Virus record (IMG/VR): IMGVR_UViG_3300022839_000060
Span: 1-31,878 of that record
Length of the DNA stretch: 31,878 nucleotides
Reading direction: 5' to 3' (one strand)
Origin: a virus
Taxonomy: Duplodnaviria; Caudoviricetes
In this document: piece by piece, positions 3,746 through 30,021 of the stretch
Position numbering within the stretch: the first letter of the stretch is position 1
Layout of the letters: every line of letters begins with the position of its first letter
Made by a program: the position numbers and the translations under genes
Notes under the pieces: model-generated
Seen by the model: the letters and a program-made list of their open reading frames with translations, nothing else
Databases searched by the model: none
Told to the model about the DNA's origin: nothing

Positions 3746-6700
3746 TCACTCAGCGGCTTTTCTCGTGCGATCGTGCAGCTCGATGGCCCGCCGGTGAATG
3801 TCGTATTGCTGGAGGCGAAGGCGCTCCAGCGCCGTCTCCTTGGCGTCTTCCGCCATGCTTGACGCGCGAACCAAGCCCTCCTGCTTTCGCAGGCTTGAGA
3901 GGATCTTCGCATAAGCGTTGAACGGGCCGATCAGCCGCAAAAGCACTGGATCGCGATTGCGAGCGGCCAAGGCCTCCTCAGCGCGACCGGCGCCGGAAAG
4001 TCCCTTTAGTTCGAACTCCAGCGCCGATGTGGCGTCTGAAATCTTATCGTATGCCCGCCACGTCGGCATCTCCCCGAAGGTGCGCGTGTAAAAGTTGCGC
4101 ACGAAGGGAACCTGGTCGAGATCCAGCGGCCGCCCTGCGCTAAGGTCTTCACCCGTCCTGATGGATCGCGTGATGAGCCGACCCACGCCGCCGGTGTAGG
4201 CGCTGAAAAGGTGGTCGATCTGCTCGGGCGAAATGTCAATCCACCCCCCGCGGAACGTGTTGCCGCCGGTCGAGTCGTTCAGATATTTTGTGAGAGACTT
4301 GGACCACGACGAGACGCTGGGATAATACTGCTCGCTCATCGGGCGCAGATCGCCGGGGTAGCTTGGCTTGATGGTGCTGTCCATGAAGTTTTTATTGCGC
4401 ACCACCTCAGAGATAGGGTCCAGCACGGTTGGGATTGCCATGGCGAACAAGTCTTGCCCGCCAAGGGGATTGAACGAGTTCAATATGGCCGAAACTATAA
4501 CCCCCGCGCTTTCGGCCGGAGTTGACCCGTGCAATGCCATCCGACCCATTTCGGTGCCCGCGACCTTGAACACGTTGTAGCCGTAGGAGATCGGCATTTT
4601 CCCAAACTCGCCTGACTCACCAAGCCCAAGCGGCGCCCACGCAATGACGATGTTACGCTCTCGAACGTAGTCATCAAGTTTTTTATATTCGTCATCATCC
4701 CCAGAAGCCAGAATGGCCTCCAGGAGACCCATGAACATATAGCTCCCAGCCAACGCACGCGCTGTGTTGCTATTTTTGAGCGTCGTGAACATGGCGGCAG
4801 AGCCCTGCATCGCGGCGTTGAAGAACATATATGCGGCGTTGATGGCCGGGGTTGCATTGCCCTTTGCGTTAAAGTCCACCGTCACGTTTCGGGCGATAAT
4901 CGCAGCCGCCGTGCGGGGCACGCCAGCATCCACGGCTGCTTTGTAGGCCGCGATGCGGATTGCGTTCTCGCCTGTGCTGGTGACAACTTCGATTGCTGCG
5001 AATATGCGGCCCGGACCCGCATCCCAGAGCTTCTTCATCTTCTTTTCGGTCGTGGCGCCCGAAACCATGTCCTTGAACGCCTCGACGTCCTTGAAGTCGA
5101 TGTATGACACCTTGCCGCCATCGGCCACAAAGTCCTCTGCCACCTGCTTCCAACGGCTGTTGCCCATGCCGCTAAAATACTGAGCAGCCCCAAGAAACGC
5201 GCCGAAGTAATTCTTATACATCGAAATAGCAAGGCTCTTTTGGGTAAGCCCGCCGATCTGAATGCCCGCCGTCTGGAGGTCTCGCAGCATGTTTACGGAG
5301 AACCACTCAATGTTCCAAGTCGTGTTGAGTGCCGAAATGGTTCTTGTCAAAGCCCCCACGATGCTAACGAATGCACGAACTAAAGCGCTTCCGTTTTCTG
5401 GGTTCATGCTTTTCAAGCCCGCGGCGATGTCCGGGTTTTGGATCGTGATCGCCACCTCCTTCCCGCCGATCTTCACGATCATCACGTTGTCGGCCATCCG
5501 GCTGGGCGGAGTAGACTTGAACTTGACCTGCTTGCGGCTCACCATCACCGGGTCGCCAGTCACGGGGTCGATCACCATCACCTTGGATTTGCCGATGGAG
5601 CGCGTCACCTCTCGCCGATCAACCTCCCACGCCGCAGGGTTCGGGTTCGCCGTCACGAAGCGCAGAAACGTCTTGCCGACGCGGTTTTTCTCACTGCGCA
5701 CGATCGTGCTGGCCGCCTGCGTGAACGCATAGGCAAGCGGGCTGTCCGAGCGCGACCGGCGCCCGGTTCTGGCCCGGCTCTCCTGCCCGCGGATGTCGAA
5801 GCCCCGGCCTATGCCGTAGCCACTGTCGGCCTCCTCATCCTTAAACCCGCGAAGGGGCACATAGTTGCTGTAGACGGATCGCATGGCGTCGGCGCTCTCT
5901 TGCGCGATCAGCCCAGACGACACCTGAAGGTCAAGCGCCTGATCGAGCATCCGCCGCACCCGGCGCGACACCTGCCGGTAAACCGCGGCTTGCGGGGTTG
6001 CCTCCGCGCGCGTGATTATCGCGGCTGCTTCGTTCGCGCTCATGCCCGATCCGCCAACCACGTCAGGATCGGTCACGGCCTGCACGAACTGATGGTCCGG
6101 GTTATCGACTTCGTAGAGGCGCGCAACCTGCTCGTTTGCCTCGGCCGCGTGCATGGCCGCCAGATAGTCGTCCATGTCGGTGCTCTCGATGCCCGCCTTA
6201 TCCATCACCTTGATGATGGGACGCACCTGCCCGTCATAGAACTTTTCAAGGCGTGCCCCCGTGCGCCCGATGTAAAGGCTGGCGATGCCATAGGTGTCCT
6301 GGTTGAGCGGGGTAGGGGCTCCCGTTGCAGCCTCAACCGCGCGCTGCTGACGCAAGGTGTCGGTTCGGGTGTTCACAAGGCTTCGCTTCCAAAACGTGCC
6401 CAAATCTTGCCAGCTTTGCGCCTTCAGCAGCTCGCCCCAATTCCACGGCGCAAACATGCGCGCAAGCTCGCCGCGTGTGCGGGTCTCATAGGTATCAAAC
6501 GGACCAGGCGGCACGTTTCGGCGCTGCTCGCGGCTAACGATTGTCACGCTGTCGTCGTGGTAGATCACATAGTTGAACGTCCCATCGCCCACCCTGCGCG
6601 ACCGCCCGTCGAGAAAGCGGTGGCCCGGAATGCCCGCGGCGTGCATGGCCAGCGACGCCGCCTGATCGCCGCCCAGCTTGCGCGACAAGGCGTTGTAGGC

Positions 6701-9700
6701 GGCTTTGCCGCTCGATGCGGGCCGCTCGCCGTCGAGCAGGCCGCGCATGGCGTCGCGCACGCCTTGCGGCTGTTCGGACATCGGGGTGTCGAACGTCAAC
6801 ATGCTCGCGTCTTCGGGTATTTCGACGGTGTAGAGCGCGCCGGGCTGGCTGTTATCAGAAACGACTTGAGAAATTTCCGAAGCCATTTTGTCAAGAAGAT
6901 CAACTTCAAGTTTTAGTTCTTCAATCTCAATTCTTCTGGTTTTACCATAAGGGCCGTGCTCCATAGCAACAGCCTTGATTTTTTCACGGGGAACCTTGCT
7001 GGCATCAGTTTCCCCGATCTCCATCCCTGTTGTCGGAAGTTTCTGAACTTGTAGAGATGCAATTTCAAAGCCGACATAGCTAATCATACGCTCCATTGCG
7101 GCTATGTCTTTTTCAAGCGCCAGAGTTGAATTATTAAGTTTATCAATCTTGTCAGTGCGTTCGGATCGCGCCTCATTGAACCATGTTCCAAAGTCACCAT
7201 TGCTGTCGCGCATTCTTGATGCCGGAAAAAAGACACTGGTGAGATCCGCGCCGCTAAGTTTTTCACTTCTAAGAAAGGCGTCTACAACATTAGAAAGTGA
7301 GCTTCTACCACGGTAATCCTGACCGTTATATGTAAAGTATTGCTTTTCTTTACTGTCGCCGTTTGGTTTTGTAAGGATGTCTCGGTAAAACTTTGCCAGC
7401 GACTTCCTGCCCGCGAAATACATGCCCCAGCCGAACGCCTGCGCGCCCTCCCCAGTCCCCATGGCCGACGTGCTGAATTTGGGGAACTTGTGCGGCGACC
7501 CATGGAACGCTGACTGATCGCGCTCCACAAAGCGGCCGTCCGGGCCGCGCACCCGCGCGCCGATCGCGCCGCTGTCCACCCGGCCAAACGTGCCATCAGT
7601 GCTGTTGAAGCCGTTGCCTTGCACCCAGTTGCCGATCGCCTCGATGACCGACTTGATCTTGGCAAATGCGCGCGCCACCACGTCCGGGGTGCTCTTGCGC
7701 TTGCCGTCCGCCCAAGCCGCAAATTCCTCTGCGATCGCTTCCTCACGCCATAGCGCCGTGTCGCCCTCTGGATACAGCGCCTTGACGTTGTGTTTTTTGA
7801 TCCACAGCGCATCGGCCCGCTTGCTCAGGGCTGACCACTCGCCTGTCGTGAACATGCCACCAAGGTAGAGCGCGTGGATCGCTTCATGGTTCAGCGTGCC
7901 CGTGAAATTGTCAGAAGTCGTGTTGATAACAATCGTGCGCGATCCGTCAGAGGCCATCCTGAAGGCGCCCTGAGCGCTGCTACCGCTTTCAACGACGAGC
8001 GCCACGTCCTTGAGCCCCAGCGCGTCCAGACGGGCACGCAGATCGCCTATCTGTGCGGCGATCATGGTCTGGGTCGTGACTGGGCCGCGCCGCTCAGATG
8101 TGGCGGGCTGAGCGAGAGGGTTCATTTGAAAACGAATGCGAGCGTCTTCGGGGTCAAAGGTTCCCTGGTTGTCGGTAGACTTGATCTGCTCCGGGTCAAA
8201 CGCGATCCAAACGCGATGCTTCACGCTGCCAGATGTAATTCGGCCTCCACCCATGTGGGTGATGCCGTCGTGCCCCATTGCGCGAAGCGCGTCCTGCATG
8301 ATCTCGGCGCCCTCATAGCTGGGCATCCCCTCTGCGGACAAAGCGTCTTCGGCCAGCCGATAGGCGTCTTCGTTCGTCACGCTGCCATCAAAATCAGCTT
8401 CGTATCGGCTGAACGCCTCGGTCCACGCTTTGATGTCTGCCTTAGCCTCCATGTCCAACGGGTTCTGGATGGACAGGAAAACTTCGTAGATACCCGGCGT
8501 TACCTTGTCGCCACGAGCGATGATCGCCTTTGCGCCCTTCTCGGTATAGGTTTCAGCCATCTCGCGTAGTTGGGTGAAATATCCACCCATGCCCATCAGG
8601 CCATAGTTGCCCGCATAGGTGTCGAACATATCAAAGCCAAAGCGTGCCGTGCCGTGATAGACGGTCAGCGGGTTGCCGTCGGCATCGACCACCTTGCTTT
8701 TTCGGAACCATTTGTTGAACGCGGTGTCGCTCGCATCGCCGCGCCGCTCGCGGGTGACGGTGCCGTTCACCGCGTCAACAAACTTGGTGCGCTCGGCCGC
8801 GCTGAAAAACTGGAAGCCGGGCACGGCCCCGCCGGACTTGTAGGCGGAATAGTGCCCCCCGTTGGCCTTGGCGATCGCCAGCACGGCCGAATACGCCTCT
8901 CTCGACAGGCGCGCGCCGCTGGTGGCGACGAACACGGGCATGTCGCGCTTCACATGGCGCGTTTCAGCTAGGTCGAACTGCACGCCAGCCACCGGCGCAA
9001 GATCCGCGACTTCAGGCGCATCGACAGGAAGCGGGGCGTCCTTCGTTTTGGGCTCCAGGCGATCAGCGATGGAAAGCCCCTCCATCGCGTCGAAAAGCTG
9101 GTCGATATTCGTTTCGCCGGTGAAATCCACACTTTTCTGCGACAACGCGGCGGCGATTTCAGGATCGGACTGCTTCTCCAGAACGATGATCTTTGTGGCG
9201 ACCTTCGTTCCAGCGCGCTCGAAAGTGACCGCAGGCAAGGCGATGCTGGCAACCTCATAGACGCCCGACATCCCGCGCTCGGCCATCACGCGCGCATAGG
9301 CCTTGTCCGCAGCGGGGCCGACAGGCACAAGCGCCACGATCCGTCCGCCGTTGCGCAAGTGCGTCGCGGCCTTGGCGACATGCTTGAACGCCGTTGATCC
9401 GCCGACGCCAAACGGCGGGTTCATTACGATCGCGTCGAATTTGTTGACGACGTGCAGATCCTCGAACGTGCCCGTCTGCACATCCGATCCTGGCGCCGCC
9501 AGCGCAGCCCGCGAGGACAGCGACGGGGAGGGCTCGATCAGCACCCGATTGCTGGTGTCGGGCATCCAGCGCGCAATGGCTCCGTCCCCGGCCGAAGGCT
9601 CCAGCACGTCCTCAAGGGTCTTGATGTTGGCCAGTTGCACCATCTTGAGACCGACCGGCTCTGGCGTGGCGTAGAAATCCGCGCCCTCGCGCTGGTCGCG

Positions 9701-12700
9701 GCGCTGCCCCTTGCGCTCAAGGCGCCCGAAGAAGCGCACCTTTGCCTGCTGCCAAGGCGTTATGCCGCCCCCAAGCCGTCGATCCGCCTCGCGCCCGCCA
9801 GTCCCGTCGCTGGCCGTGGCGCTATGCGCGGCCGTGTCCGAGAAGGCCTCGATAAAGGAGTCGCGCAGGGATCGCGCATCGTCCCCCAGCGCAAGGTTTT
9901 CCGCAGTGCCGGCACGCGCGGCCATCGTGTCCGCAAACGCCTGCCGCTCCCACATGGTCCCGGTGTTCAGGTAGCGCATGACCGCGTTGGTCTTCATGCC
10001 CAGCCGGGCGCCGCGGCCCTCTTGCTGGATGGCGCGCGTTGGGCGTGTTGGCAGGCCAAGGTTGAACATCACGCGCTGGTGCATGCCCGTCGTGTCGTGA
10101 AGCGAAATGCCGCTTTCGCCCGCGTCAGACTGCACGATCAGCAGGTCAAGCCCAGAGCCATCCCGGTTGAATTCATCCTTGGACGCTTCGCGCTTCTTCG
10201 GAGACACGGTGCCGTTATAGACAGCAGCGCGCTTGCCGAATGTCTCGGTCAGCGCGGCAATCGGGTTGGCGTAATCCGCGAATTTCAGATCAGCGACATA
10301 TGGGTTTCGCCGCAAAAATTCGTCCATGTAGGGCTGGGCGTAGACCTCTTTCTTGATGTTGAGGCCTTGCTCCGACTTTACGTTGATTGTGATCTTTTGG
10401 CCCTTGGGTATGGACACGCGGAACGGGTCAAACCCAGACCCCTTGTTGTAATCGTGGAACACGAACACCTTGCGCCCCATTGCGAGGTGTTCCTCGATCA
10501 TGGGGATGACGGCGCGCGCTTTGATCGCCTCAAGCAATCGCCGCTGCTCAAGAAACCCGAAATTCTTCTTGATGATCTGCTCGTAAAGCGGCCGAAACTT
10601 TCCACCGTCAGCCGACATCAGGAACGTCACCGCCTGGTCGATGCGCTCGCCCACGCTGTCGTCCACCGAAACGAATTTGCGGTCGTAGTCTTTGTCCACC
10701 AGAAGCGCGCGACCGGACAGCGCGCCTGACTGCTTCAAATCGTTGTGAAATTGGACCTCGAACAGCTCAGATTGCACTCGGCTTTCAGGCTGCGTCAGCT
10801 TGTTATAACGGATGCGGAAGCCAAACTTCTCGACCATGAACAGGTTTCGCCCGCTCTGGCGTGATCCGCTTGGCGTGATCCCGGACTTGGGATAATCGAA
10901 CAGATAACCGTTCGCGTAATCAACATTTTTTGCATAGGCGAACGGCGTCGCGGAGAGAAACACCACCTTAGAGCGCGGCTTCGCCTTAATTTCCGCACGG
11001 ACGATTTCCTCGGCCGCGTAGAGCTTTTTATTGAGCTCGTCGCCTCGCTTGGTTCGCTCGATCGTGGGTCGGCCTTCGTCTGCCAGCGCCTTGATTTTCT
11101 CCCGGATGGGGCGGATGTCCTTATGCGTGCGAACGCGCTCGCGGACGCCATCGGGATGCAACGAAAGGGCGCGCAGCGCGGTCAGCGCAAGCGTGTCGCC
11201 CGCACCTGCGTTGCTCATCAGGTTGTCGGCTTCGTCGGTGACAATCAGATCCCAATCGGTGTCGCCCAATATCTGGTTGTCACCCATGTTCGCGTAGGTC
11301 GTCGTCACAACGCCGGTGCCAGTGCTCGACGTGTTGGCCAAGCGGTTGGTCTTGACCTTCAGGCCATTAGCGGCCTTTTCCCAGCCAATCAAAATCCCGT
11401 CGCTCGGCGCGATGACGAGAATGTTCGCGTTCGGGTTCTGCATCAGCGTGCGCTTGATGATCCCCAAGCCCGTGAAGGTCTTCCCGGTTCCGGTTCCGTT
11501 GGTGAACATCATGCCGAATTTGCCGTCAACGATCAGCCGCTTTTCGGCCTTCACGACGTCATCCTGCTGCTCGGCAAACAGGCTCGGCAGGGTCTTGCGG
11601 ACGTTCTCAAGATCAGCGGCGACAAAGGCGCCCGGCGTCAGGTCATCGGCGTTTCGATCATCGCCTTCCTGAACGATGCTTTCTCCGCCTCGTTCATCGG
11701 AGCTTCCCGTTCCGCCATCAGCACCGCTTCCTCCACGTCCTCCAGCGCTGGCAGGCTTAGAAGCCCCGCGCGCGCCACCGCGCGGCTCTCCCACAGCAGC
11801 GGGCCGATTTTGAGAACCAGAGCGGCCACCATCCCGCTGCCCGTCACTGCCGTCAATCGCGCTTCCTCCAGCGCCAGCGCCTTGCCCAAGTGCTCCTCCG
11901 GCAGTGGAAACATCTGCATCGCCCACGAGGTTTCCAGCGTTTGCGTTTCCGCTATCCGGTTCCACACCGCCGCGTTTGCCTGATACATCGGTCGTCTCCA
12001 AGTTGGCGTCAATTTCCGCGAGGGCGGCGCGAACGGCATCCGGCCCGTCCATGCCAGAGACATCCCCACCCATGTCCTCGGTCATATCACGCGCGCCGTT
12101 ATACCAAGACCGGAGATATGGCCTTAGCTTGGCAACCGTGGTGCCCAAGTCGCTTGCAATCGCAGACGCGAACGCCTTGAAAGTCCGCGCGCCACGCTCG
12201 ACGTGATACACAGCCATCTCAGCGCCAAGCGCCATAATTTCAGGGTCGATGCCGACGTTGAGCTGGTTCTTTAGCTTGTCCTTCAGCTTGGCGCGAATTT
12301 CAGCCATCCGCTCATCAGTGACAAGCGTATTTTTGCCACCGGCGGGCGTGGGCGCTGCCGTGGGCGCGGGCGGCGTGGGCGCTGCCGTGGGCGCGGGCGG
12401 CGTGGGCGCTGCCGTGGGCGCGGGCGGCGTGGGCGCTGCCGTGGGCGCGGGCGGCGCGGGCGCTGCCGTGGGCGCGGGCGGCGCGGTGGTGGCCGTGGGC
12501 GCAGACGGCGTTCCGAACATATCGTCCTGATCGCGCGCGCCGAGGTCGAACAAGCCGTCATCCGGCGCCTTCTGCGGGGCCTTCGGGCGCATGGGGGCCT
12601 TTGCGCCTTGCGCGGCCATCTGCGCCCCGCTCGCCTGCTCAGCGCCGGGGATGACCGCCTGCGGACCTGCGGCGGTGATGTCGGTTGCGCTGGGCGTCAG

Positions 12701-15478
12701 CCCTTCTTGCGCGCCTGCTCCGCTTGCTGCTCCTTGCTCGGAAAGAACCGGCGCTGCATCTCCGCCAGGGCGAACCCCGTTAGTCCCGCCTGGAACTTCG
12801 TCGCTGGCTTTGATGGCGTCGAGGAACTGCTTGCGGGCTGCGCCGACTGTGAGGCTTCCATCTTTGACGCCTCGGGCTGCTTCATTGAGCGCATCTGAAA
12901 TCGGTCCTTTTCTCTGTGACAGCTTCTCGATCGTCAGGGACAGGCGATCATTCGTCGCCATGCCAGCCGCGTTGGCCTTACCGTCAAGCACATTTCCCGC
13001 AGACGATAGCATGTCCTCGTCCCGGATTACCGTTTTGAACGCGGATTTGGTCATGCGCAGCGTTTTCATCGCGTTGTCGAGGACGCGGGCACGCTCGCGG
13101 ATCAAAGTGTCGGTGAAAACTTCCTCGCCAAACAGGCCACCTTGGGTCTCCTGCGTGAAGCCTGCGTTTTGGATCTCGCCAATCAGCAATCGTGCTTCGT
13201 TGGCGGTTCTGGGCTTGGCGGCGATCAAGGCCGTGGCCACAGCAGCATGTTGGGACTTGTCGGTGACAAGGCGCCCGATCTCTGCGCCTTGTGCATCAGG
13301 CAAGCGATCGTTGACCACTAGGCCCCAAGCGTCATCGCTCAGTTTGGCCAGATCAGCGCCGTCACGATAAGCAGTGCGTTTCGGCGGAATAAACTTGGCG
13401 GCCTCGGCGCCCATGCCCGCGCGGAACACACGCGCGATGTCGCGTGCTTTTGTGCTCTCGCCACCTTCAGCCAGGTTTTTAAGCGCACCCTCAGACATGG
13501 CGGCTTCAGCAGTCACGCCATCCGCTTCGCGCAGAACCTTCGCGCGCAGGGTGACATCGGGCTGCCCGGCCGCCTTGGCGCGCTTGGCAAGGTCAAGGCG
13601 CTGATGCCCATCCACGATGTATCGGGTGCCGTCGTTGGCCTCCCATACAACCGCGATGCCGGAATAGTCGTTGCTCCACTGGAAGTCGCCCGCCAACGCG
13701 CCGGTGACGCCTGCCGCATCGCCGCCGTCCTTGAACTGGAACCGCTTCGGGTCCGCGACAACGCTCTCCGGGTCGAGCATGACCAGATCGCCATCCGCGG
13801 CCACTGCGGCCGCGGCAACCTCGGGGGCCTGCGGGTTGGCGGCGTCGGGCTCGGCCACGGCCACCGGCGCGGGAACGGGCACAGGCTCCGTCGCCATGTT
13901 GAACGACGCGGGGTCGCGGATCGCCGGATTGCGCGGCGGCGCGACGGGCGCCGGAGGCGGGGGCGGCGCGGTGCGAGGATCGCTGGGCGACCTGGCGCCA
14001 GCGCGCTCGTCATCGCGCAGCGCGGACGTGTCGGGCAGGGGCGCGACCTGTCCCGGCTGCACGGGCGGCGTAATCGCAGGCGGGGGCAGGCGCAGGATCT
14101 CGGCAACGCGGCGCTTGCCCGCCTCGATCAGCTCGTTGCTGTTCGCCGACGCGCGGTCGGCCGGGGTCAGAAACGGGCTGTCGGGGCTGGACATATCCAC
14201 GTCGGCCGCGGCCAACGCCGCTGTCGCCGCTTCGCGCGATGTGGGCGCCACGCCGTCGTCGAGCGCCTGCTGCACCGCTTCGGCGCGCTCGGCGCCTGAC
14301 ATCGACATGATGTCGGGGATTGTGTCGCCCGCGCCCAGAAGCACCTGCACGTCGTCCATGAGGCTTGCCGCCGGCGTTGCCTCGGGGTCAGCGCGCGGGG
14401 GCGCTACAGGCGGCACAGGCGGCACAGGCGGCGTGCCAGACGCCGGGTCAAAGAGATCCACCGGATCGCCTGGGGCGGGGGGAGGCGCGTTCGGGTCACG
14501 TCGCGGCGGAGCGCCACTGACGGCCATGCTTCCCGCGCCGATGCCGCCGCCTAAGATGGCGCCGACAAGCGCAGCCTCGCCAACATTCGCGAACTGGCTG
14601 CGCTCGGGGTCATAAATCCCGATTGCGACGAGGTTGTTCAGCCATTGCGACAGCCCCTCTTGCGCCGCTTCCTCGCCCGCCGACATCGTGAGGTGCGCCA
14701 GCACGCGGACCAGCTTTTTTGATGCGCCGCCGGTTAGGCGGTCAAGCGGCTTGAGCGCCCGCAGGATGGGCACGGCCTCCGTTGTGCCGATAAGCGCGCC
14801 AAGCCCCGCGGCATTCAGCGCGTCCTCTTCGCTGGCGCCGTTCATCAGGGCATCGTCATACTGAGACCCTGCGCCTACGGCCGAGCCAGCGACAACGATG
14901 CCGGGCAAGCCTGTGACAACCGCGGCGACAAGGAATCCGGCCATGGAGCCAGCGCCTTGGGGGAGCGTCGAGGTGAAAAAGTCACCGTCATAGGCGGGAT
15001 TTGTCTGGAACGTGTCCTTGGCGAAGTCGCTGATGCCTTGGCCCGCAGCGTAGAGGGCGGTGCTTTTTGCGGCGGGGTTGTCCATCCGCGAGCCGAACAT
15101 CTGGCGCGTTTGCTCCGCGTTTTGCTCCGCGGCGACAAGATCTCCAGAGATGTCCTCACCAGTGGCGCCGCGGCGAGCAAGGTTCACCATGATGCCCGAG
15201 TGATACTCCTCGGACTGCTCTTGCATCCGCGCCTGCTGCTCGTTGCGCTGCCCCTGCGTGTAGGCGCGCACGGCGGCCACGCCTTTGGTGGCGACACCCG
15301 CCATGTCAACAAAGCCTCGCCCCACCGAGTTTATGGCGCTGCCGAAGCGCCCTTGCCCGGTGTCGATTGCTGGAGCGGGGGTGGCGGCGGGCGTGACTAT
15401 ATCGTCAGCCCACCAGTCGTCCTGCTTGCCATCTTCAGGCTTCGCGATCTGATCCGCTGTCCACCAATCTTCGCTCAC
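3746..15478 (-). CDS. giant DarB-like polyvalent virion/ejected protein (3910 aa): ParB-like, SF2 helicase, N6-adenine MTase, 2x ART-like, HExxH metallopeptidase, LPD38-like C-terminus
   Basis: IVDGHQR (DGHQR 13598-13612); GTGTGKT (11477-11497), DEAD (11225-11236), FLSATP, QQEGRGAR; DFYATP, VLEPSAGDG, NPPF (9410-9421); YHGT..GGYFT..AFDPEQIKS; HEAIH (7874-7888)+EEAIAE; FHGS..GWGMYF..NYVIY; PTVLDPISEV..NKNF..SPEQIDH. Confidence 0.9.
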   Translation of the reverse strand: MSEDWWTADQIAKPEDGKQDDWWADDIVTPAATPAPAIDTGQGRFGSAINSVGRGFVDMAGVATKGVAAVRAYTQGQRNEQQARMQEQSEEYHSGIMVNLARRGATGEDISGDLVAAEQNAEQTRQMFGSRMDNPAAKSTALYAAGQGISDFAKDTFQTNPAYDGDFFTSTLPQGAGSMAGFLVAAVVTGLPGIVVAGSAVGAGSQYDDALMNGASEEDALNAAGLGALIGTTEAVPILRALKPLDRLTGGASKKLVRVLAHLTMSAGEEAAQEGLSQWLNNLVAIGIYDPERSQFANVGEAALVGAILGGGIGAGSMAVSGAPPRRDPNAPPPAPGDPVDLFDPASGTPPVPPVPPVAPPRADPEATPAASLMDDVQVLLGAGDTIPDIMSMSGAERAEAVQQALDDGVAPTSREAATAALAAADVDMSSPDSPFLTPADRASANSNELIEAGKRRVAEILRLPPPAITPPVQPGQVAPLPDTSALRDDERAGARSPSDPRTAPPPPPAPVAPPRNPAIRDPASFNMATEPVPVPAPVAVAEPDAANPQAPEVAAAAVAADGDLVMLDPESVVADPKRFQFKDGGDAAGVTGALAGDFQWSNDYSGIAVVWEANDGTRYIVDGHQRLDLAKRAKAAGQPDVTLRAKVLREADGVTAEAAMSEGALKNLAEGGESTKARDIARVFRAGMGAEAAKFIPPKRTAYRDGADLAKLSDDAWGLVVNDRLPDAQGAEIGRLVTDKSQHAAVATALIAAKPRTANEARLLIGEIQNAGFTQETQGGLFGEEVFTDTLIRERARVLDNAMKTLRMTKSAFKTVIRDEDMLSSAGNVLDGKANAAGMATNDRLSLTIEKLSQRKGPISDALNEAARGVKDGSLTVGAARKQFLDAIKASDEVPGGTNGVRPGGDAAPVLSEQGAASGAGAQEGLTPSATDITAAGPQAVIPGAEQASGAQMAAQGAKAPMRPKAPQKAPDDGLFDLGARDQDDMFGTPSAPTATTAPPAPTAAPAPPAPTAAPTPPAPTAAPTPPAPTAAPTPPAPTAAPTPAGGKNTLVTDERMAEIRAKLKDKLKNQLNVGIDPEIMALGAEMAVYHVERGARTFKAFASAIASDLGTTVAKLRPYLRSWYNGARDMTEDMGGDVSGMDGPDAVRAALAEIDANLETTDVSGKRGGVEPDSGNANAGNLVGDADVSTAGGALGQGAGAGGSAIDGSDGQRDGGRSGSQNRPAAVGEPRGGARGASKPASAGGRGGSGADGGTGSSDERGGESIVQEGDDRNADDLTPGAFVAADLENVRKTLPSLFAEQQDDVVKAEKRLIVDGKFGMMFTNGTGTGKTFTGLGIIKRTLMQNPNANILVIAPSDGILIGWEKAANGLKVKTNRLANTSSTGTGVVTTTYANMGDNQILGDTDWDLIVTDEADNLMSNAGAGDTLALTALRALSLHPDGVRERVRTHKDIRPIREKIKALADEGRPTIERTKRGDELNKKLYAAEEIVRAEIKAKPRSKVVFLSATPFAYAKNVDYANGYLFDYPKSGITPSGSRQSGRNLFMVEKFGFRIRYNKLTQPESRVQSELFEVQFHNDLKQSGALSGRALLVDKDYDRKFVSVDDSVGERIDQAVTFLMSADGGKFRPLYEQIIKKNFGFLEQRRLLEAIKARAVIPMIEEHLAMGRKVFVFHDYNKGSGFDPFRVSIPKGQKITINVKSEQGLNIKKEVYAQPYMDEFLRRNPYVADLKFADYANPIAALTETFGKRAAVYNGTVSPKKREASKDEFNRDGSGLDLLIVQSDAGESGISLHDTTGMHQRVMFNLGLPTRPTRAIQQEGRGARLGMKTNAVMRYLNTGTMWERQAFADTMAARAGTAENLALGDDARSLRDSFIEAFSDTAAHSATASDGTGGREADRRLGGGITPWQQAKVRFFGRLERKGQRRDQREGADFYATPEPVGLKMVQLANIKTLEDVLEPSAGDGAIARWMPDTSNRVLIEPSPSLSSRAALAAPGSDVQTGTFEDLHVVNKFDAIVMNPPFGVGGSTAFKHVAKAATHLRNGGRIVALVPVGPAADKAYARVMAERGMSGVYEVASIALPAVTFERAGTKVATKIIVLEKQSDPEIAAALSQKSVDFTGETNIDQLFDAMEGLSIADRLEPKTKDAPLPVDAPEVADLAPVAGVQFDLAETRHVKRDMPVFVATSGARLSREAYSAVLAIAKANGGHYSAYKSGGAVPGFQFFSAAERTKFVDAVNGTVTRERRGDASDTAFNKWFRKSKVVDADGNPLTVYHGTARFGFDMFDTYAGNYGLMGMGGYFTQLREMAETYTEKGAKAIIARGDKVTPGIYEVFLSIQNPLDMEAKADIKAWTEAFSRYEADFDGSVTNEDAYRLAEDALSAEGMPSYEGAEIMQDALRAMGHDGITHMGGGRITSGSVKHRVWIAFDPEQIKSTDNQGTFDPEDARIRFQMNPLAQPATSERRGPVTTQTMIAAQIGDLRARLDALGLKDVALVVESGSSAQGAFRMASDGSRTIVINTTSDNFTGTLNHEAIHALYLGGMFTTGEWSALSKRADALWIKKHNVKALYPEGDTALWREEAIAEEFAAWADGKRKSTPDVVARAFAKIKSVIEAIGNWVQGNGFNSTDGTFGRVDSGAIGARVRGPDGRFVERDQSAFHGSPHKFPKFSTSAMGTGEGAQAFGWGMYFAGRKSLAKFYRDILTKPNGDSKEKQYFTYNGQDYRGRSSLSNVVDAFLRSEKLSGADLTSVFFPASRMRDSNGDFGTWFNEARSERTDKIDKLNNSTLALEKDIAAMERMISYVGFEIASLQVQKLPTTGMEIGETDASKVPREKIKAVAMEHGPYGKTRRIEIEELKLEVDLLDKMASEISQVVSDNSQPGALYTVEIPEDASMLTFDTPMSEQPQGVRDAMRGLLDGERPASSGKAAYNALSRKLGGDQAASLAMHAAGIPGHRFLDGRSRRVGDGTFNYVIYHDDSVTIVSREQRRNVPPGPFDTYETRTRGELARMFAPWNWGELLKAQSWQDLGTFWKRSLVNTRTDTLRQQRAVEAATGAPTPLNQDTYGIASLYIGRTGARLEKFYDGQVRPIIKVMDKAGIESTDMDDYLAAMHAAEANEQVARLYEVDNPDHQFVQAVTDPDVVGGSGMSANEAAAIITRAEATPQAAVYRQVSRRVRRMLDQALDLQVSSGLIAQESADAMRSVYSNYVPLRGFKDEEADSGYGIGRGFDIRGQESRARTGRRSRSDSPLAYAFTQAASTIVRSEKNRVGKTFLRFVTANPNPAAWEVDRREVTRSIGKSKVMVIDPVTGDPVMVSRKQVKFKSTPPSRMADNVMIVKIGGKEVAITIQNPDIAAGLKSMNPENGSALVRAFVSIVGALTRTISALNTTWNIEWFSVNMLRDLQTAGIQIGGLTQKSLAISMYKNYFGAFLGAAQYFSGMGNSRWKQVAEDFVADGGKVSYIDFKDVEAFKDMVSGATTEKKMKKLWDAGPGRIFAAIEVVTSTGENAIRIAAYKAAVDAGVPRTAAAIIARNVTVDFNAKGNATPAINAAYMFFNAAMQGSAAMFTTLKNSNTARALAGSYMFMGLLEAILASGDDDEYKKLDDYVRERNIVIAWAPLGLGESGEFGKMPISYGYNVFKVAGTEMGRMALHGSTPAESAGVIVSAILNSFNPLGGQDLFAMAIPTVLDPISEVVRNKNFMDSTIKPSYPGDLRPMSEQYYPSVSSWSKSLTKYLNDSTGGNTFRGGWIDISPEQIDHLFSAYTGGVGRLITRSIRTGEDLSAGRPLDLDQVPFVRNFYTRTFGEMPTWRAYDKISDATSALEFELKGLSGAGRAEEALAARNRDPVLLRLIGPFNAYAKILSSLRKQEGLVRASSMAEDAKETALERLRLQQYDIHRRAIELHDRTRKAAE
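11638..11988 (-). CDS. putative nested +1-frame gene (116 aa) inside the giant gene
   Basis: GGAG 7 nt before ATG; mostly G/C-ending codons in this frame while the host frame becomes A/T-ending and low-complexity; helical protein-like sequence. Confidence 0.6.
   Translation of the reverse strand: MYQANAAVWNRIAETQTLETSWAMQMFPLPEEHLGKALALEEARLTAVTGSGMVAALVLKIGPLLWESRAVARAGLLSLPALEDVEEAVLMAEREAPMNEAEKASFRKAMIETPMT
12345..12506. repeat. 27-bp tandem repeat (about 6 units) encoding PAPTAAPTP linker
   Basis: ggcgtgggcgctgccgtgggcgcgggc x4 exact, one copy with a single substitution, one degenerate copy. Confidence 0.95.
12697..12894 (-). CDS. possible second nested +1-frame ORF (65 aa)
   Basis: AAAGGA 10 nt upstream of ATG; local drop in host-frame GC3; same +1 frame as 11638-11988. 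Confidence 0.3.
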   Translation of the reverse strand: MRSMKQPEASKMEASQSAQPASSSSTPSKPATKFQAGLTGFALAEMQRRFFPSKEQQAEQARKKG

Positions 15479-27011: not shown

Positions 27012-29272
27012 CAGACGGACCCCCCAGAACTAACGCCGGTGCGCTCCTGCATTCCAACCTCGACCGCCACGCCGCGCTCCTTGCTGGCACGGTCCTCGCG
27101 CCTGTCGAACGCTTTGGCGGCGCGATCGGCGTCGCCCTTGTTGGAAGCCTCCGCGGAAGTCATCATCGCGGTATCCTGCTGGATCAGGGCGATTTCCTTG
27201 GCCATCTCGTTGGTGGCGTTAGCCATGCCAACTTTGGCGTCGAGCTCTGCGTCGGCCTGTTCGATCTTGCGCGTCTCGATCTCCATTCGCCGCTGCTCGG
27301 CGCCGCCATCGCCCTCCGCCTCCGCTGCCTGAGCCGCCATGTCGTCCAGCATCTTTTTGAACTCATCGTCGGTCAGGATGATCTCGTCGGCCTTCAGCAT
27401 GTGCGCCTGCATGATCCGCCGCAAAAGCGGCAGGCCGTTGTCGCGCAGCATGGGGCCGAACACTGGATGGCCCCCGTAGCGATCCGCCATGGCGATCAGG
27501 TTTTGCGCCTGCATCTCGCGCACCATCAAGACGCTGGAGCCGCGCGCGATGACCTTGTGGTCGCCCTTGATTTCCTCGCGCGGGCTGAACTGCATGTTCC
27601 AGTCGAAAAATCGCCGGATCAGCGTCTCGGGCACGTCGTCATCGAACTGCTTCACGATCTTGCGGAACACGATGTTGCCCGCCGACGTGAGGATCGCCAT
27701 GCCCTGCGCGGTCTTCGTGACGCCCGTGCCCTGCTCGCCCTGCGCAAACGCGGGCATGCCTGCAACCTCATCCGCCAGCATCATGGCGCGCTGCTCGATC
27801 GCGAGCATTTCCCCAAGCGCGCTGTTGACCTGGAACATATCGAACGGCTTCGCGCCCCCCATGTTTCCAATGCTGTCGCGCTTCCACACCTTGAAAGACC
27901 GCGGTATCCAATCGCCGTCTTCCGGCTCGATCTGCGTCTTGTCGATGACAATTTGCGGACCAGCCGTGGCGCCGCCGTGGTCGAGGATAATCCGCCAGAC
28001 GCCGTTGATGATGCTCTGCGCGTCGTTGAGAAGCGACGGCATCCCTCGGCCAAAAATTGACGCCTCGTCAGGCTCGATGCGAAACACCGAATACAGCGTC
28101 TCGCCGCTGTCGAGCGGGTAGGGCGCCACCTTCAGGATCTCATAATCGCAAAACCAGACGATCGCGTTCACCTGGTCCAGAATGTCGTATTTCTCAGCTT
28201 CGTTCTCGCCCTCTTTGTCACCGGCGTCCTGGTAGAGCCCCTTCAGGTCGCCCGCCTCGATCGGCCCCGAGTATTCCCAGACGCAGTAGCAGCCCTTGTC
28301 TGTCGTCACCGCGCCCTCGCCTATGGCGCGCAGCTCGGACAGATACGCGCTTTCGCTTGTGCTGGCCGGGGTTTGAATGATCCGACGGATTGCGTCGCGG
28401 TCAAACCCATCCTCCTTCGCAAGCTCGCGCATCTGCTTTTTGTTCAGCATGTGGCGCTCAAAAACACCCTCGCCGTCCTCGACGTTGGCCACGCTCATGT
28501 CAGGAAAAAAATTCCACGGGTCCACGCGCTTCACGGTCGGCTGTTCGGGCTCGGTCCAGACCAGATCGAAAGCGTCTTCGGGGAGGCGATCTTCTTCACC
28601 CGGCGGAGCGGACGACTTTTTCCAGCCGCGGCGCTTTTTGCCACCGGCGATCGGGCCCTTTACGACCCCGGCGCCCATCTTGCACGCATCCATGATGACG
28701 ACGCGAGCCTTGGCGGGCCAATTCGACTCGTCAAGCTGATCCTTGATCTGCTCCTGCATGCCCGCAGCGCGCCTCACAGCCTCCTCACGCTCCGCCACCA
28801 ATTTCTGAGACACCGACGCGGCAGAATTGGCAAGCTGCCCTGCCGCCTCTGCGCCGGGCTGGCCCTGCTGCGCCTGAGCGGTGGCCGTCGCCTCGTCGGT
28901 GATCTGAGTGGCTTCGAGCGCAACGCGCACAAGCTGGGGATATGCCGTCGCCTCGATGCCCCAGTTCAAATCGTCGGTCGGAAACAGCATGTCGCTCAGC
29001 TTCGCGGCCATGGCGTTGGTCTTCACCCGCGTCACGTTGACGAACACCTGACTGCGCTCGCTATCGTCCAGCAGCTTTTGCGTCTTCTCGTCATAGACGC
29101 CATGGAACCGGCGCAGGTCGTCCAGCCACCGCACCTCAAGCTCGGAGCGATCCCCCTCGCGGCGGCGGACTTCCGTTTTCAGGTCATCAAGAACGCGAGA
29201 CGATGCGTTCATCTTTTGTGCGTTTTCATCGCCATCCTTGACGGTGGCGGCGTCTTGCGTGTTGTAGGCCAT
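27011..29272 (-). CDS. portal protein (753 aa)
   Basis: SQVFVNVTRVK, GAGVVKGP, RVDPWNFFPD, IFGRG, C-terminal helical barrel; follows terminase. Confidence 0.9.
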   Translation of the reverse strand: MAYNTQDAATVKDGDENAQKMNASSRVLDDLKTEVRRREGDRSELEVRWLDDLRRFHGVYDEKTQKLLDDSERSQVFVNVTRVKTNAMAAKLSDMLFPTDDLNWGIEATAYPQLVRVALEATQITDEATATAQAQQGQPGAEAAGQLANSAASVSQKLVAEREEAVRRAAGMQEQIKDQLDESNWPAKARVVIMDACKMGAGVVKGPIAGGKKRRGWKKSSAPPGEEDRLPEDAFDLVWTEPEQPTVKRVDPWNFFPDMSVANVEDGEGVFERHMLNKKQMRELAKEDGFDRDAIRRIIQTPASTSESAYLSELRAIGEGAVTTDKGCYCVWEYSGPIEAGDLKGLYQDAGDKEGENEAEKYDILDQVNAIVWFCDYEILKVAPYPLDSGETLYSVFRIEPDEASIFGRGMPSLLNDAQSIINGVWRIILDHGGATAGPQIVIDKTQIEPEDGDWIPRSFKVWKRDSIGNMGGAKPFDMFQVNSALGEMLAIEQRAMMLADEVAGMPAFAQGEQGTGVTKTAQGMAILTSAGNIVFRKIVKQFDDDVPETLIRRFFDWNMQFSPREEIKGDHKVIARGSSVLMVREMQAQNLIAMADRYGGHPVFGPMLRDNGLPLLRRIMQAHMLKADEIILTDDEFKKMLDDMAAQAAEAEGDGGAEQRRMEIETRKIEQADAELDAKVGMANATNEMAKEIALIQQDTAMMTSAEASNKGDADRAAKAFDRREDRASKERGVAVEVGMQERTGVSSGGSV

Positions 29273-30021
29273 CAGTAGCCAGCCCTCCCGTCAGCAGGTC
29301 TTGTCGATGATTTGGACCACCCGGCGTTGCCTACCGGGCGGACGCGAGCAACCAGCCGCCCAGAGGCGACCAGGTATCGAAGGCAATCCATTGCGTGATC
29401 GGTTTTTTTGATGATCTTGCCGTTTTCGTCGCGGCGGTAGAGTGAATATTCGTGGCGAAAATTGCTGAGCGTGTTGAAAACCTTGATGCGGCCCTCGCTC
29501 AAGCCCTCCCAAACCGCGTAGATCCCGCTTTCGACGCCGTTGTCCGCGTTGGTGATGTGAAGGCCGAGCTCCCGATAGGCGATCATCAGTTGCTCGCCGT
29601 CCTTCTGCGCCCGCCCATTCGCCGCCGGGTCGATCACGCCTTGAACCCAGTCGCCCCGGGCCTTGATTGCGGCCGCGTGAACGGCCGGCTTTTCGTGCCC
29701 GCGGTAATGCTCGGAGTAGACGTAGAGCGTCCGCTCCTCGCGGTTCCATGCCCCCCACAATGCCGCCGTCTTGTTCCAACCAACGTCCATGCCGTAGGCG
29801 CGCGGCCAATAGTCGGGGATCTCAAACGGCTTCACGACGATCTCGTCCCACGGGATCGGGTAGATCGCACCGGCGCCGAGCGATGGCGTGCCCCTTGAAC
29901 GGGGGCCGCGCAGGTGGGGCAGCGTGCCCCGGAGCAATTCCGCCTTGGTGGCGGCGTCGAGGTGCGGAACGTCGTCCCATCCAGCCGAGACGACATAGCG
30001 GCTGGGGCTGATTTCGGGCAT
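29272..30021 (-). CDS. terL: terminase large subunit, C-terminal nuclease half only (P22 gp2-like, 249 aa)
   Basis: WDDVPHL, RGTPSLGAGAIY, GMDVGW, VIDPA, NGVESGI, LYRRDENGKIIK..DHAMDCLRY; no Walker A/B. Confidence 0.9.
   Translation of the reverse strand: MPEISPSRYVVSAGWDDVPHLDAATKAELLRGTLPHLRGPRSRGTPSLGAGAIYPIPWDEIVVKPFEIPDYWPRAYGMDVGWNKTAALWGAWNREERTLYVYSEHYRGHEKPAVHAAAIKARGDWVQGVIDPAANGRAQKDGEQLMIAYRELGLHITNADNGVESGIYAVWEGLSEGRIKVFNTLSNFRHEYSLYRRDENGKIIKKTDHAMDCLRYLVASGRLVARVRPVGNAGWSKSSTRPADGRAGY

Follow-up and report, generated by a model that had tools for sequence, protein, structure and literature searches.

The question raised by this locus is whether a 116-codon open reading frame (ORF), contained in the coding region of a giant phage gene, is itself a gene and what its product would do for the giant. 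The stretch of DNA analyzed, referred to here as the window, is 31,878 nt in length and represents a podophage virion module, with portal, capsid, adaptor and tail-fibre genes on the minus strand. Most of 10500–13500 recurs in sequencing runs of salt-lake metagenomes, two of which are possible sources of this DNA; among the 17 runs listed there is none of RNA, and contigs of four DNA runs compared over 11400–13200 gave no further evidence on the ORF among the differences listed. The ORF at 29272–30021 encodes a terminase large subunit of only 249 aa (the nuclease part), and there is no terminase ATPase family match in the four ORFs between it and the end of the window. Features of the giant and of the ORF within it are listed below.

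3746..15478, minus strand: giant polyvalent gene, 3910 aa, phrog_10691; the last gene of the virion module, followed by the endolysin
11986..12331, minus strand: helical domain upstream of the nested gene, common to Bcep22/LASTA-type DarB-like giants
11996..11999, minus strand: Shine-Dalgarno (SD) sequence GGAG of the nested gene, with a 7-nt spacer to the ATG
11638..11988, minus strand: nested gene of 116 aa in the giant's +1 frame; own ATG and SD, homologues, selection and a predicted fold
11641..11989, minus strand: G/A/S/D/R-rich linker, giant residues 1164–1280; the giant frame across the nested gene
9802..11638, minus strand: SF2 SWI2/SNF2-like ATPase domain (Walker A 11497, DEAD 11236, QQEGR 10027)
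9046..9781, minus strand: adenine-N6-type methyltransferase domain, C-terminal to the ATPase (EPSAGDG 9601, NPPF 9421)
8158..8686, minus strand: ART-PolyVal domain of the giant (PF18760, E 9e-23)
4102..4696, minus strand: LPD38 domain of the giant (PF18857, E 3e-41)

The giant gene and the ORF within it

The PHROGs match of the giant has a score of 1599 bits. Its Pfam-type content consists of a ResIII/Helicase_C ATPase, a methylase, ART-PolyVal and LPD38; LPD36 is absent from its Pfam matches. The predicted structure of residues 1285–2145 has a pLDDT of 92, and the top Foldseek matches of this model are motors of the CSB, Chd1, DDM1 and BRG1 type (E about 1e-12). The Walker A and B, DEAD, EPSAGDG (residue 1960) and NPPF (residue 2020) motifs are intact. 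A polyvalent methylase-helicase dyad with a SWI2/SNF2-related ATPase, an NPPF adenine methylase, LPD38 and ART-PolyVal in one phage protein is described in the main text of Iyer et al. (2017, PMC5512222), where the words "overlap", "frameshift" and "TnpV" are absent and "nested" is used for a hairpin alone. The window giant has the same four components, but the order of ATPase and methylase is reversed, with no LPD36-methylase N-terminal to the helicase. In DarB the methylase is before the helicase, whereas in the window giant the ATPase is before the methylase. The giant also has a Pro/Ala/Thr tandem-repeat linker (PPAPTAAPT units, window positions 12283–12530), and contigs of relatives break or vary there. 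In one close relative (run X3) a block at 12766–12861 is strongly divergent, yet only 3 letters differ over 11400–12374; the block reads as a local domain-patch exchange.

The nested ORF starts with an ATG at 11988, 7 nt downstream of the GGAG, and extends for 116 codons to a TGA ending at 11638, as an earlier, sequence-only reading of the window had stated. That reading had also described G/C-ending codons in the nested frame, which are found at 92 of 116 positions, and exactly 22 A/T-ending codons among the first 38 of the giant frame in the overlap. The giant frame has 54 G/C-ending codons of 117 across the overlap and 2820 of 3794 outside it; one other stretch, an A+T-rich insert at giant codons ~2670–2850 (window ~6930–7400), has an even lower GC3 of about 0.35. 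The low-complexity character of the giant linker (residues 1164–1280) is evident, and the ORF does end just before the helicase, at giant residue 1280, i.e., 48 residues ahead of the Walker A sequence GTGTGKT (residue 1328).

The A+T-rich insert lies in what appears to be another ART-like part of the giant, with HGSPH at 7504. Its +1 ORFs are all 54 codons or shorter, and a second nested gene at this position is unsupported, as are further genes in the +1 ORFs 12894–12697, 13719–13513 and 10998–10795, all judged from this genome only. A GTG at 12069, which gives 143 aa, was rejected as the start of the nested gene; in homologues the frame is closed at a median of ~12 codons above the ATG.

Such an ORF could be a shadow of a GC-rich linker and no gene at all. 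When the giant was recoded synonymously, the same codons were stop-free in the +1 frame in 142 of 300 recodings, and an SD-led ATG +1 ORF of at least 116 aa was present somewhere in the giant in 81 of 300. This genome alone thus proves little, and proof has to be comparative.

Comparative evidence for a separate gene

Loci for comparison were picked by a match to the ATPase, so that the nested ORF itself plays no part in the selection. The first round comprised the best 80 of 359 viral matches and 79 loci from 131 genome matches, and the second round, with more distant queries, the best 80 of 272 and 73 loci from 470. Removal of duplicates left 219 loci: 192 giant-embedded, 22 solo, two frame-broken and three with too little upstream DNA. 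Among these best matches, the nested family is present in the +1 frame at all 192 distinct giant-embedded ATPase loci and at none of the 22 solo ATPase-methylase loci. In L154 and L285 the nested gene is present with one frame break just after it, and the ATPase is then in the nested frame.

The 130 distinct homologues from the first round are 116–150 aa in length. The start codon at the aligned position is ATG in 127 and GTG in three, and an SD-like 4-mer is found at 97 of the 130, compared with 919 of 12266 other +1 ATGs (7.5%). Frame, start, SD, length and fold are all kept down to 12% identity. Omega, pooled over 24 disjoint pairs, is 0.30 in the nested frame and 1.63 in the giant frame, and it is lower for the nested frame in 23 of the 24. 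Columns that are 70% conserved number 23 in the nested protein and three in the giant, and the nested frame is the better conserved at all divergence levels except the nearest. In 38 close, non-independent pairs 461 single changes are synonymous for the nested protein but nonsynonymous for the giant, and 84 are of the opposite type. Conservation and omega both favor the nested frame, which implies that the giant's linker is largely a shadow of the small gene.

These comparisons of aligned loci strongly support the interpretation of the 116-aa ORF as a real, separately started gene. The sequence-only reading had proposed a real nested gene missed by annotation, and had suggested looking for a +1 ORF with a ribosome binding site in homologous giants and comparing dN/dS in each frame; on both counts the proposal is borne out. 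The shadow-ORF reading is refuted by the same data, and its probability is negligible.

A different reading is that frameshifting or re-initiation lets the giant end or start in the +1 ORF. The distance from the end of the ORF to the start of the ATPase, about 60 nt or less in most loci, would fit this reading, as would the position of the ATPase in the nested frame in L154 and L285; however, a stop still intervenes between the two in both of these loci. The conserved ATG and SD, with an in-frame stop right before the ATG in 12 of 130 homologues, also argue against it. Slippery heptamers are rare (3 of 130 tails and 9 of 130 heads) and SD-led restarts in the giant frame occur in 10 of 130, and frameshifting or re-initiation is rejected as very improbable.

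A whole gene with its own start inside another phage gene has a precedent in the spanin gene Rz1, which is embedded in Rz; their products are thought to cooperate (PMC9144972). The nested gene is likewise a complete ORF that is out of frame with the gene around it, has a start signal of its own and is under purifying selection. It differs in that it is not a lipoprotein or lysis gene: the window protein (P0001) has no Cys, the gene lies in the giant, outside the lysis cassette, and its product is predicted to be a soluble helical domain of 116–150 aa encoded within an 11.7-kb virion-module gene. It also differs in that the host frame, i.e., that of the giant, is the degenerate one. Nested phage genes and DarB helpers are known kinds, and what appears new is this family and its strict tie to the giant-embedded ATPase-methylase. 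A linker in a polyvalent protein can arise from the presence of a second gene, and the +1 frame needs to be considered when virion proteomes and knockouts of these giants are interpreted.

The result adds a widespread and unannotated protein family, hidden in genes that occupy a fifth of a phage genome. The nested protein has relatives at the 47–95% level, and its family comprises 302 clusters (50% identity) at E ≤ 0.001 among 1.84 billion representatives. The same 8 records of cultured phages (6 phages) are matched whether the query is the ATPase or a nested protein. In the five of these six phages that were inspected (Ruegeria phage 45A6, ZX1, Skulduggery of Pseudomonas fluorescens SBW25, Parlo and Vibrio 1.232.O) the nested ATG, SD and +1 frame are present and the annotation covers the giant only; a Comamonas plasmid record likewise has the giant annotated and the nested gene unannotated. 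The available parts of the Parlo and ZX1 papers describe the giant alone, and those of PMC10386132 and PMC8788219 hold nothing relevant to the nested gene. The family, its fold and its tie to the packaged ATPase-methylase are undescribed in the open-access article texts searched. A second SD-led +1 ORF, of 70 aa, is present in the giant of Klebsiella phage ZX1 (L006:7336–7548). Four Acinetobacter loci (L122, L129, L158 and L173) have a short giant of about 1240 aa, in which about 190 residues precede the nested gene.

Association with the enzyme module

The domains of the window giant were searched for by blastp, which misses distant copies, in flanks of up to 7 kb around the 130 nested genes. 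The ATPase is present in 130 giants (by selection) and the methylase in 126, followed by the upstream helix (63), LPD38 (36), ART (17) and the ParB region (14). Of ten window domains, the ATPase and methylase alone travel with the nested gene. The sequence-only reading had named a helicase, methyltransferase and ART cargo as the partner of the small protein. The ATPase-methylase part of this stands; with 17 of 130 giants for ART against 126 for the methylase, restraint of ART is unlikely as a general role.

The 22 solo enzymes are of about 850 aa, 20 being short and two lengthened by an apparent intein in the Walker A region. Walker A and NPPF are retained in the six inspected. The presence of solo copies without the nested gene argues against a simple antitoxin that is required whenever the enzyme is expressed. 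Most of the solo group belongs to a single Bacteroidota-rich clade, so that 0 of 22 represents few independent events. The solo SNF2-methylase family of ~850 aa is found in L130–L132, L135, L139, L150, L162, L166, L171 and L230–L246, and many of its members lie in Bacteroidota prophage or mobile regions. An apparent intein at Walker A of a solo enzyme is seen in L142 and L143.

Adjacency to the enzyme is not strict, since in some loci 400–960 nt of other giant sequence is found between the nested gene and the ATPase. Over 38 shared loci, distances between nested proteins correlate with those of the ATPase with a rho of 0.62 and with those of the upstream helix with a rho of 0.46, a difference that is only modest, and linkage alone could produce both correlations. 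Mean-field covariance of 218 paired sequences (effective number 163), an underpowered analysis, gave top inter-protein scores of 0.56–0.78 that are scattered and form no cluster.

The small gene could be a hitch-hiker, a real late gene with a host or capsid target that is held by descent and linkage only. Covariance that gives no binding signal, variable spacing to the ATPase and survival of the small domain in fusions away from the giant are all consistent with this. Against it, all other giant domains swap around the nested gene while the ATPase-methylase stays, and a different enzyme module has a different nested family, as described below; it is distinctly improbable.

The nested family is absent from six giants that have the upstream helix but no match to the window ATPase. 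In Bcep22, LASTA, POI1126 and Itty13 an SD-led +1 ORF of 105–108 aa is in the slot instead, and in PBC5 and BKO1-TP3 no ORF is seen in that slot. The unannotated slot ORFs are as follows.

L221:7359–7682, +1 frame of the Bcep22 giant
L222:7410–7736, +1 frame of the LASTA giant
L223:7335–7652, +1 frame of the POI1126 giant
L226:7878–8201, +1 frame of the Itty13 giant

The slot ORFs of Bcep22, LASTA and Itty13 have weak matches to TnpV (PF14198) with E values of 0.003–0.045, below the cut-off. These TnpV-like ORFs resemble the nested gene in being in the same slot and in the +1 frame, with an ATG and SD, before an enzyme module. They differ from it in sequence, which is unrelated, and in the partner, which is a methylase-then-SNF2 module; this module follows the slot ORF in Bcep22 and LASTA. 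An hhalign comparison of the nested family with the four slot ORFs gives a probability of 0.3%, and TnpV is absent among the 25 of 51 families listed for 148 members of the nested family. Klebsiella phages ZX1 and LASTA are of one genus and both have the upstream helix, but their enzyme module and nested gene both differ.

The small protein, its proposed role and its freed copies

The window protein has a net charge of -6 and a pI of 4.8. Homologues are mostly acidic, with a median pI of 5.1 and a net negative charge in 105 of 130, and Cys makes up 0.1% of residues across the family. Conserved residues are W9, N10, P63, E67, P80, E87 and D/E95, of which E67, E87 and D/E95 are near-invariant. 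Structure prediction of the protein alone, also suggested in the sequence-only reading, gives a confident fold: the AlphaFold2 model from 148 sequences is an all-helical domain with seven helices (pLDDT 95.1, pTM 0.88). The protein has no match in Pfam, PHROGs, PADLOC or NCBIfam, and the model has none at E ≤ 0.001 by Foldseek against PDB and BFVD. The best VIA fold match among 48,161 chains has a Z of 4.5 and an rmsd of 3.7 with 80 aligned residues, and the best ESM Atlas score, 0.87, is to an unnamed entry. A likeness to the T4 gp59 helicase loader (ESM Atlas 0.82–0.84) is under the lead threshold, and a likeness to PrmC_N/HemK (5 of 148 members, best E 0.0015; PDB E 0.38) is unsupported among the fold matches listed. 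The modeling and searches suggest a new family with no recognizable family or fold match, the absence of a match being no proof of a new fold.

The reading we favor, with a probability of roughly 0.45, is that the nested protein is a chaperone or safety catch matched to the packaged ATPase-methylase module, which it is predicted to bind. Translation of the small protein would take place on the late transcript, concurrently with that of the giant, and the protein would bind the ATPase-methylase while this enzyme is being synthesized late in infection. The bound enzyme would have no access to DNA before the giant enters the particle for injection. The giant is presumably packaged and injected, in analogy to P1 DarB and JC1 gp69, and the complex would dissociate during packaging or on ejection. 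Through nesting, helper and enzyme would remain one cassette during domain shuffling among giants, and the cost to the giant would be a floppy linker. This reading is favored because the gene accompanies the giant-embedded enzyme only (192 of 192 versus 0 of 22 solo) and because of precedents in P1 Ulx and JC1. The change of nested gene with the enzyme module and the small, mostly acidic character of the protein are also consistent with it.

PMC9024508 and PMC12810830 name Ulx as a factor in the localization of DarB in phage P1. The Bcep22-like phage JC1 has a DarB-like giant in its virion, and no homologue of the P1 helpers is known for it (PMC9144972). DarB-like podophage giants were expected to need such an accessory factor, and the nested protein is a testable candidate for it that is present in cultured phages whose hosts are harmless. 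Like the proposed nested chaperone, Ulx is a small accessory of a large packaged methylase-helicase. It is encoded by a separate 17-kDa gene, however, and no PHROGs, Pfam or NCBIfam match connects the nested protein with Ulx. Class I type III secretion chaperones are small and acidic and are encoded beside a cognate cargo that passes a narrow channel. They are alpha/beta dimers, unlike the all-helical nested protein model, and the likeness is an analogy only.

Ulx is itself a virion protein that is co-ejected with the Dar system (PMC9024508, PMC12810830). The nested protein could similarly be a co-injected accessory subunit. It would enter the particle together with the giant, and the newly infected cell would require it so that the translocase-methylase can be loaded or activated on incoming DNA. 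The co-occurrence data, i.e., giant-embedded versus solo enzymes and the methylase in 126 of 130, are identical for this alternative. However, solo enzymes with intact motifs manage without the nested gene, and for an activator, in-frame fusion would be a simple solution that is seen at none of the 192 giant loci. We consider this alternative unlikely, though the most probable of the rivals.

The small domain is also found outside the overlap. Metagenomes were scanned with a query selected to favor fused forms, and 41 loci were recovered, of which 32 are nested within a long giant frame and nine are without one. The ATPase is downstream in 28 of the 32; L194, L198 and L202 end too soon, and L201 is unexplained. 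Four of the nine are broken or partial. Three related and intact loci have an in-frame fusion of the giant helix, the small domain and an unnamed bacterial domain, and are listed below.

L181:5620–6864, freed fusion gene
L180:325–1590, freed fusion gene
L183, freed fusion gene

Omega for the small domain in these three related sequences is 0.10–0.15, and no giant is found within 6 kb of the freed fusion in the sole locus with long flanks. L181 adjoins a BrxHI/DrmD-like helicase and a VapE-like gene, and a broken copy, L188, adjoins a PDC-S37/Hhe-like helicase. Of the 149 family representatives, 32 have C-terminal extensions of at least 45 aa, some of which retain remnants of the giant. Purifying selection on freed copies implies that the domain has a use beyond the overlap, possibly as an inhibitor or sensor. 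Selected freed copies with no giant nearby count against a pure packaging chaperone, which would not need them.

A trans-acting inhibitor or immunity factor would act in the infected cell or lysogen, neutralizing the giant of a related superinfecting phage, and would have been captured by cells for the same use. The selected freed copies, the C-terminal extensions and the two freed contexts with long flanks, which both adjoin defence-like helicases, are consistent with this role; however, these contexts are just two and one is a broken copy, and the protein has no PADLOC match. In addition, no sigma-70-like promoter is present in 11500–12800 (0 found, 0.2 expected) and neither a promoter nor a terminator was detected near the nested gene, so expression in a lysogen has no visible basis here. 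Such a factor is rather unlikely.

The chaperone reading may be extended, tentatively and as something possible rather than probable, to a rule of one enzyme module and one out-of-frame keeper. Each translocase-methylase cassette would carry a cognate chaperone or inhibitor gene in the preceding linker, of the new family for the ATPase-methylase and TnpV-like for the DarB type. These genes would be the Ulx-like helpers so far missing for Bcep22-like podophages, and the keeper domain would be captured by bacteria for sensing or disarming antirestriction proteins that enter the cell.

Other fused forms vary in their partners. P0041 and P0045 share a C-terminal region that is presumably helix-turn-helix-like from its appearance (no library match), and the P0038, P0061 and P0070 fusions have tails that we take to be clamp-like (no library match). 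P0055 has a tandem duplicate of the small domain together with DUF6794.
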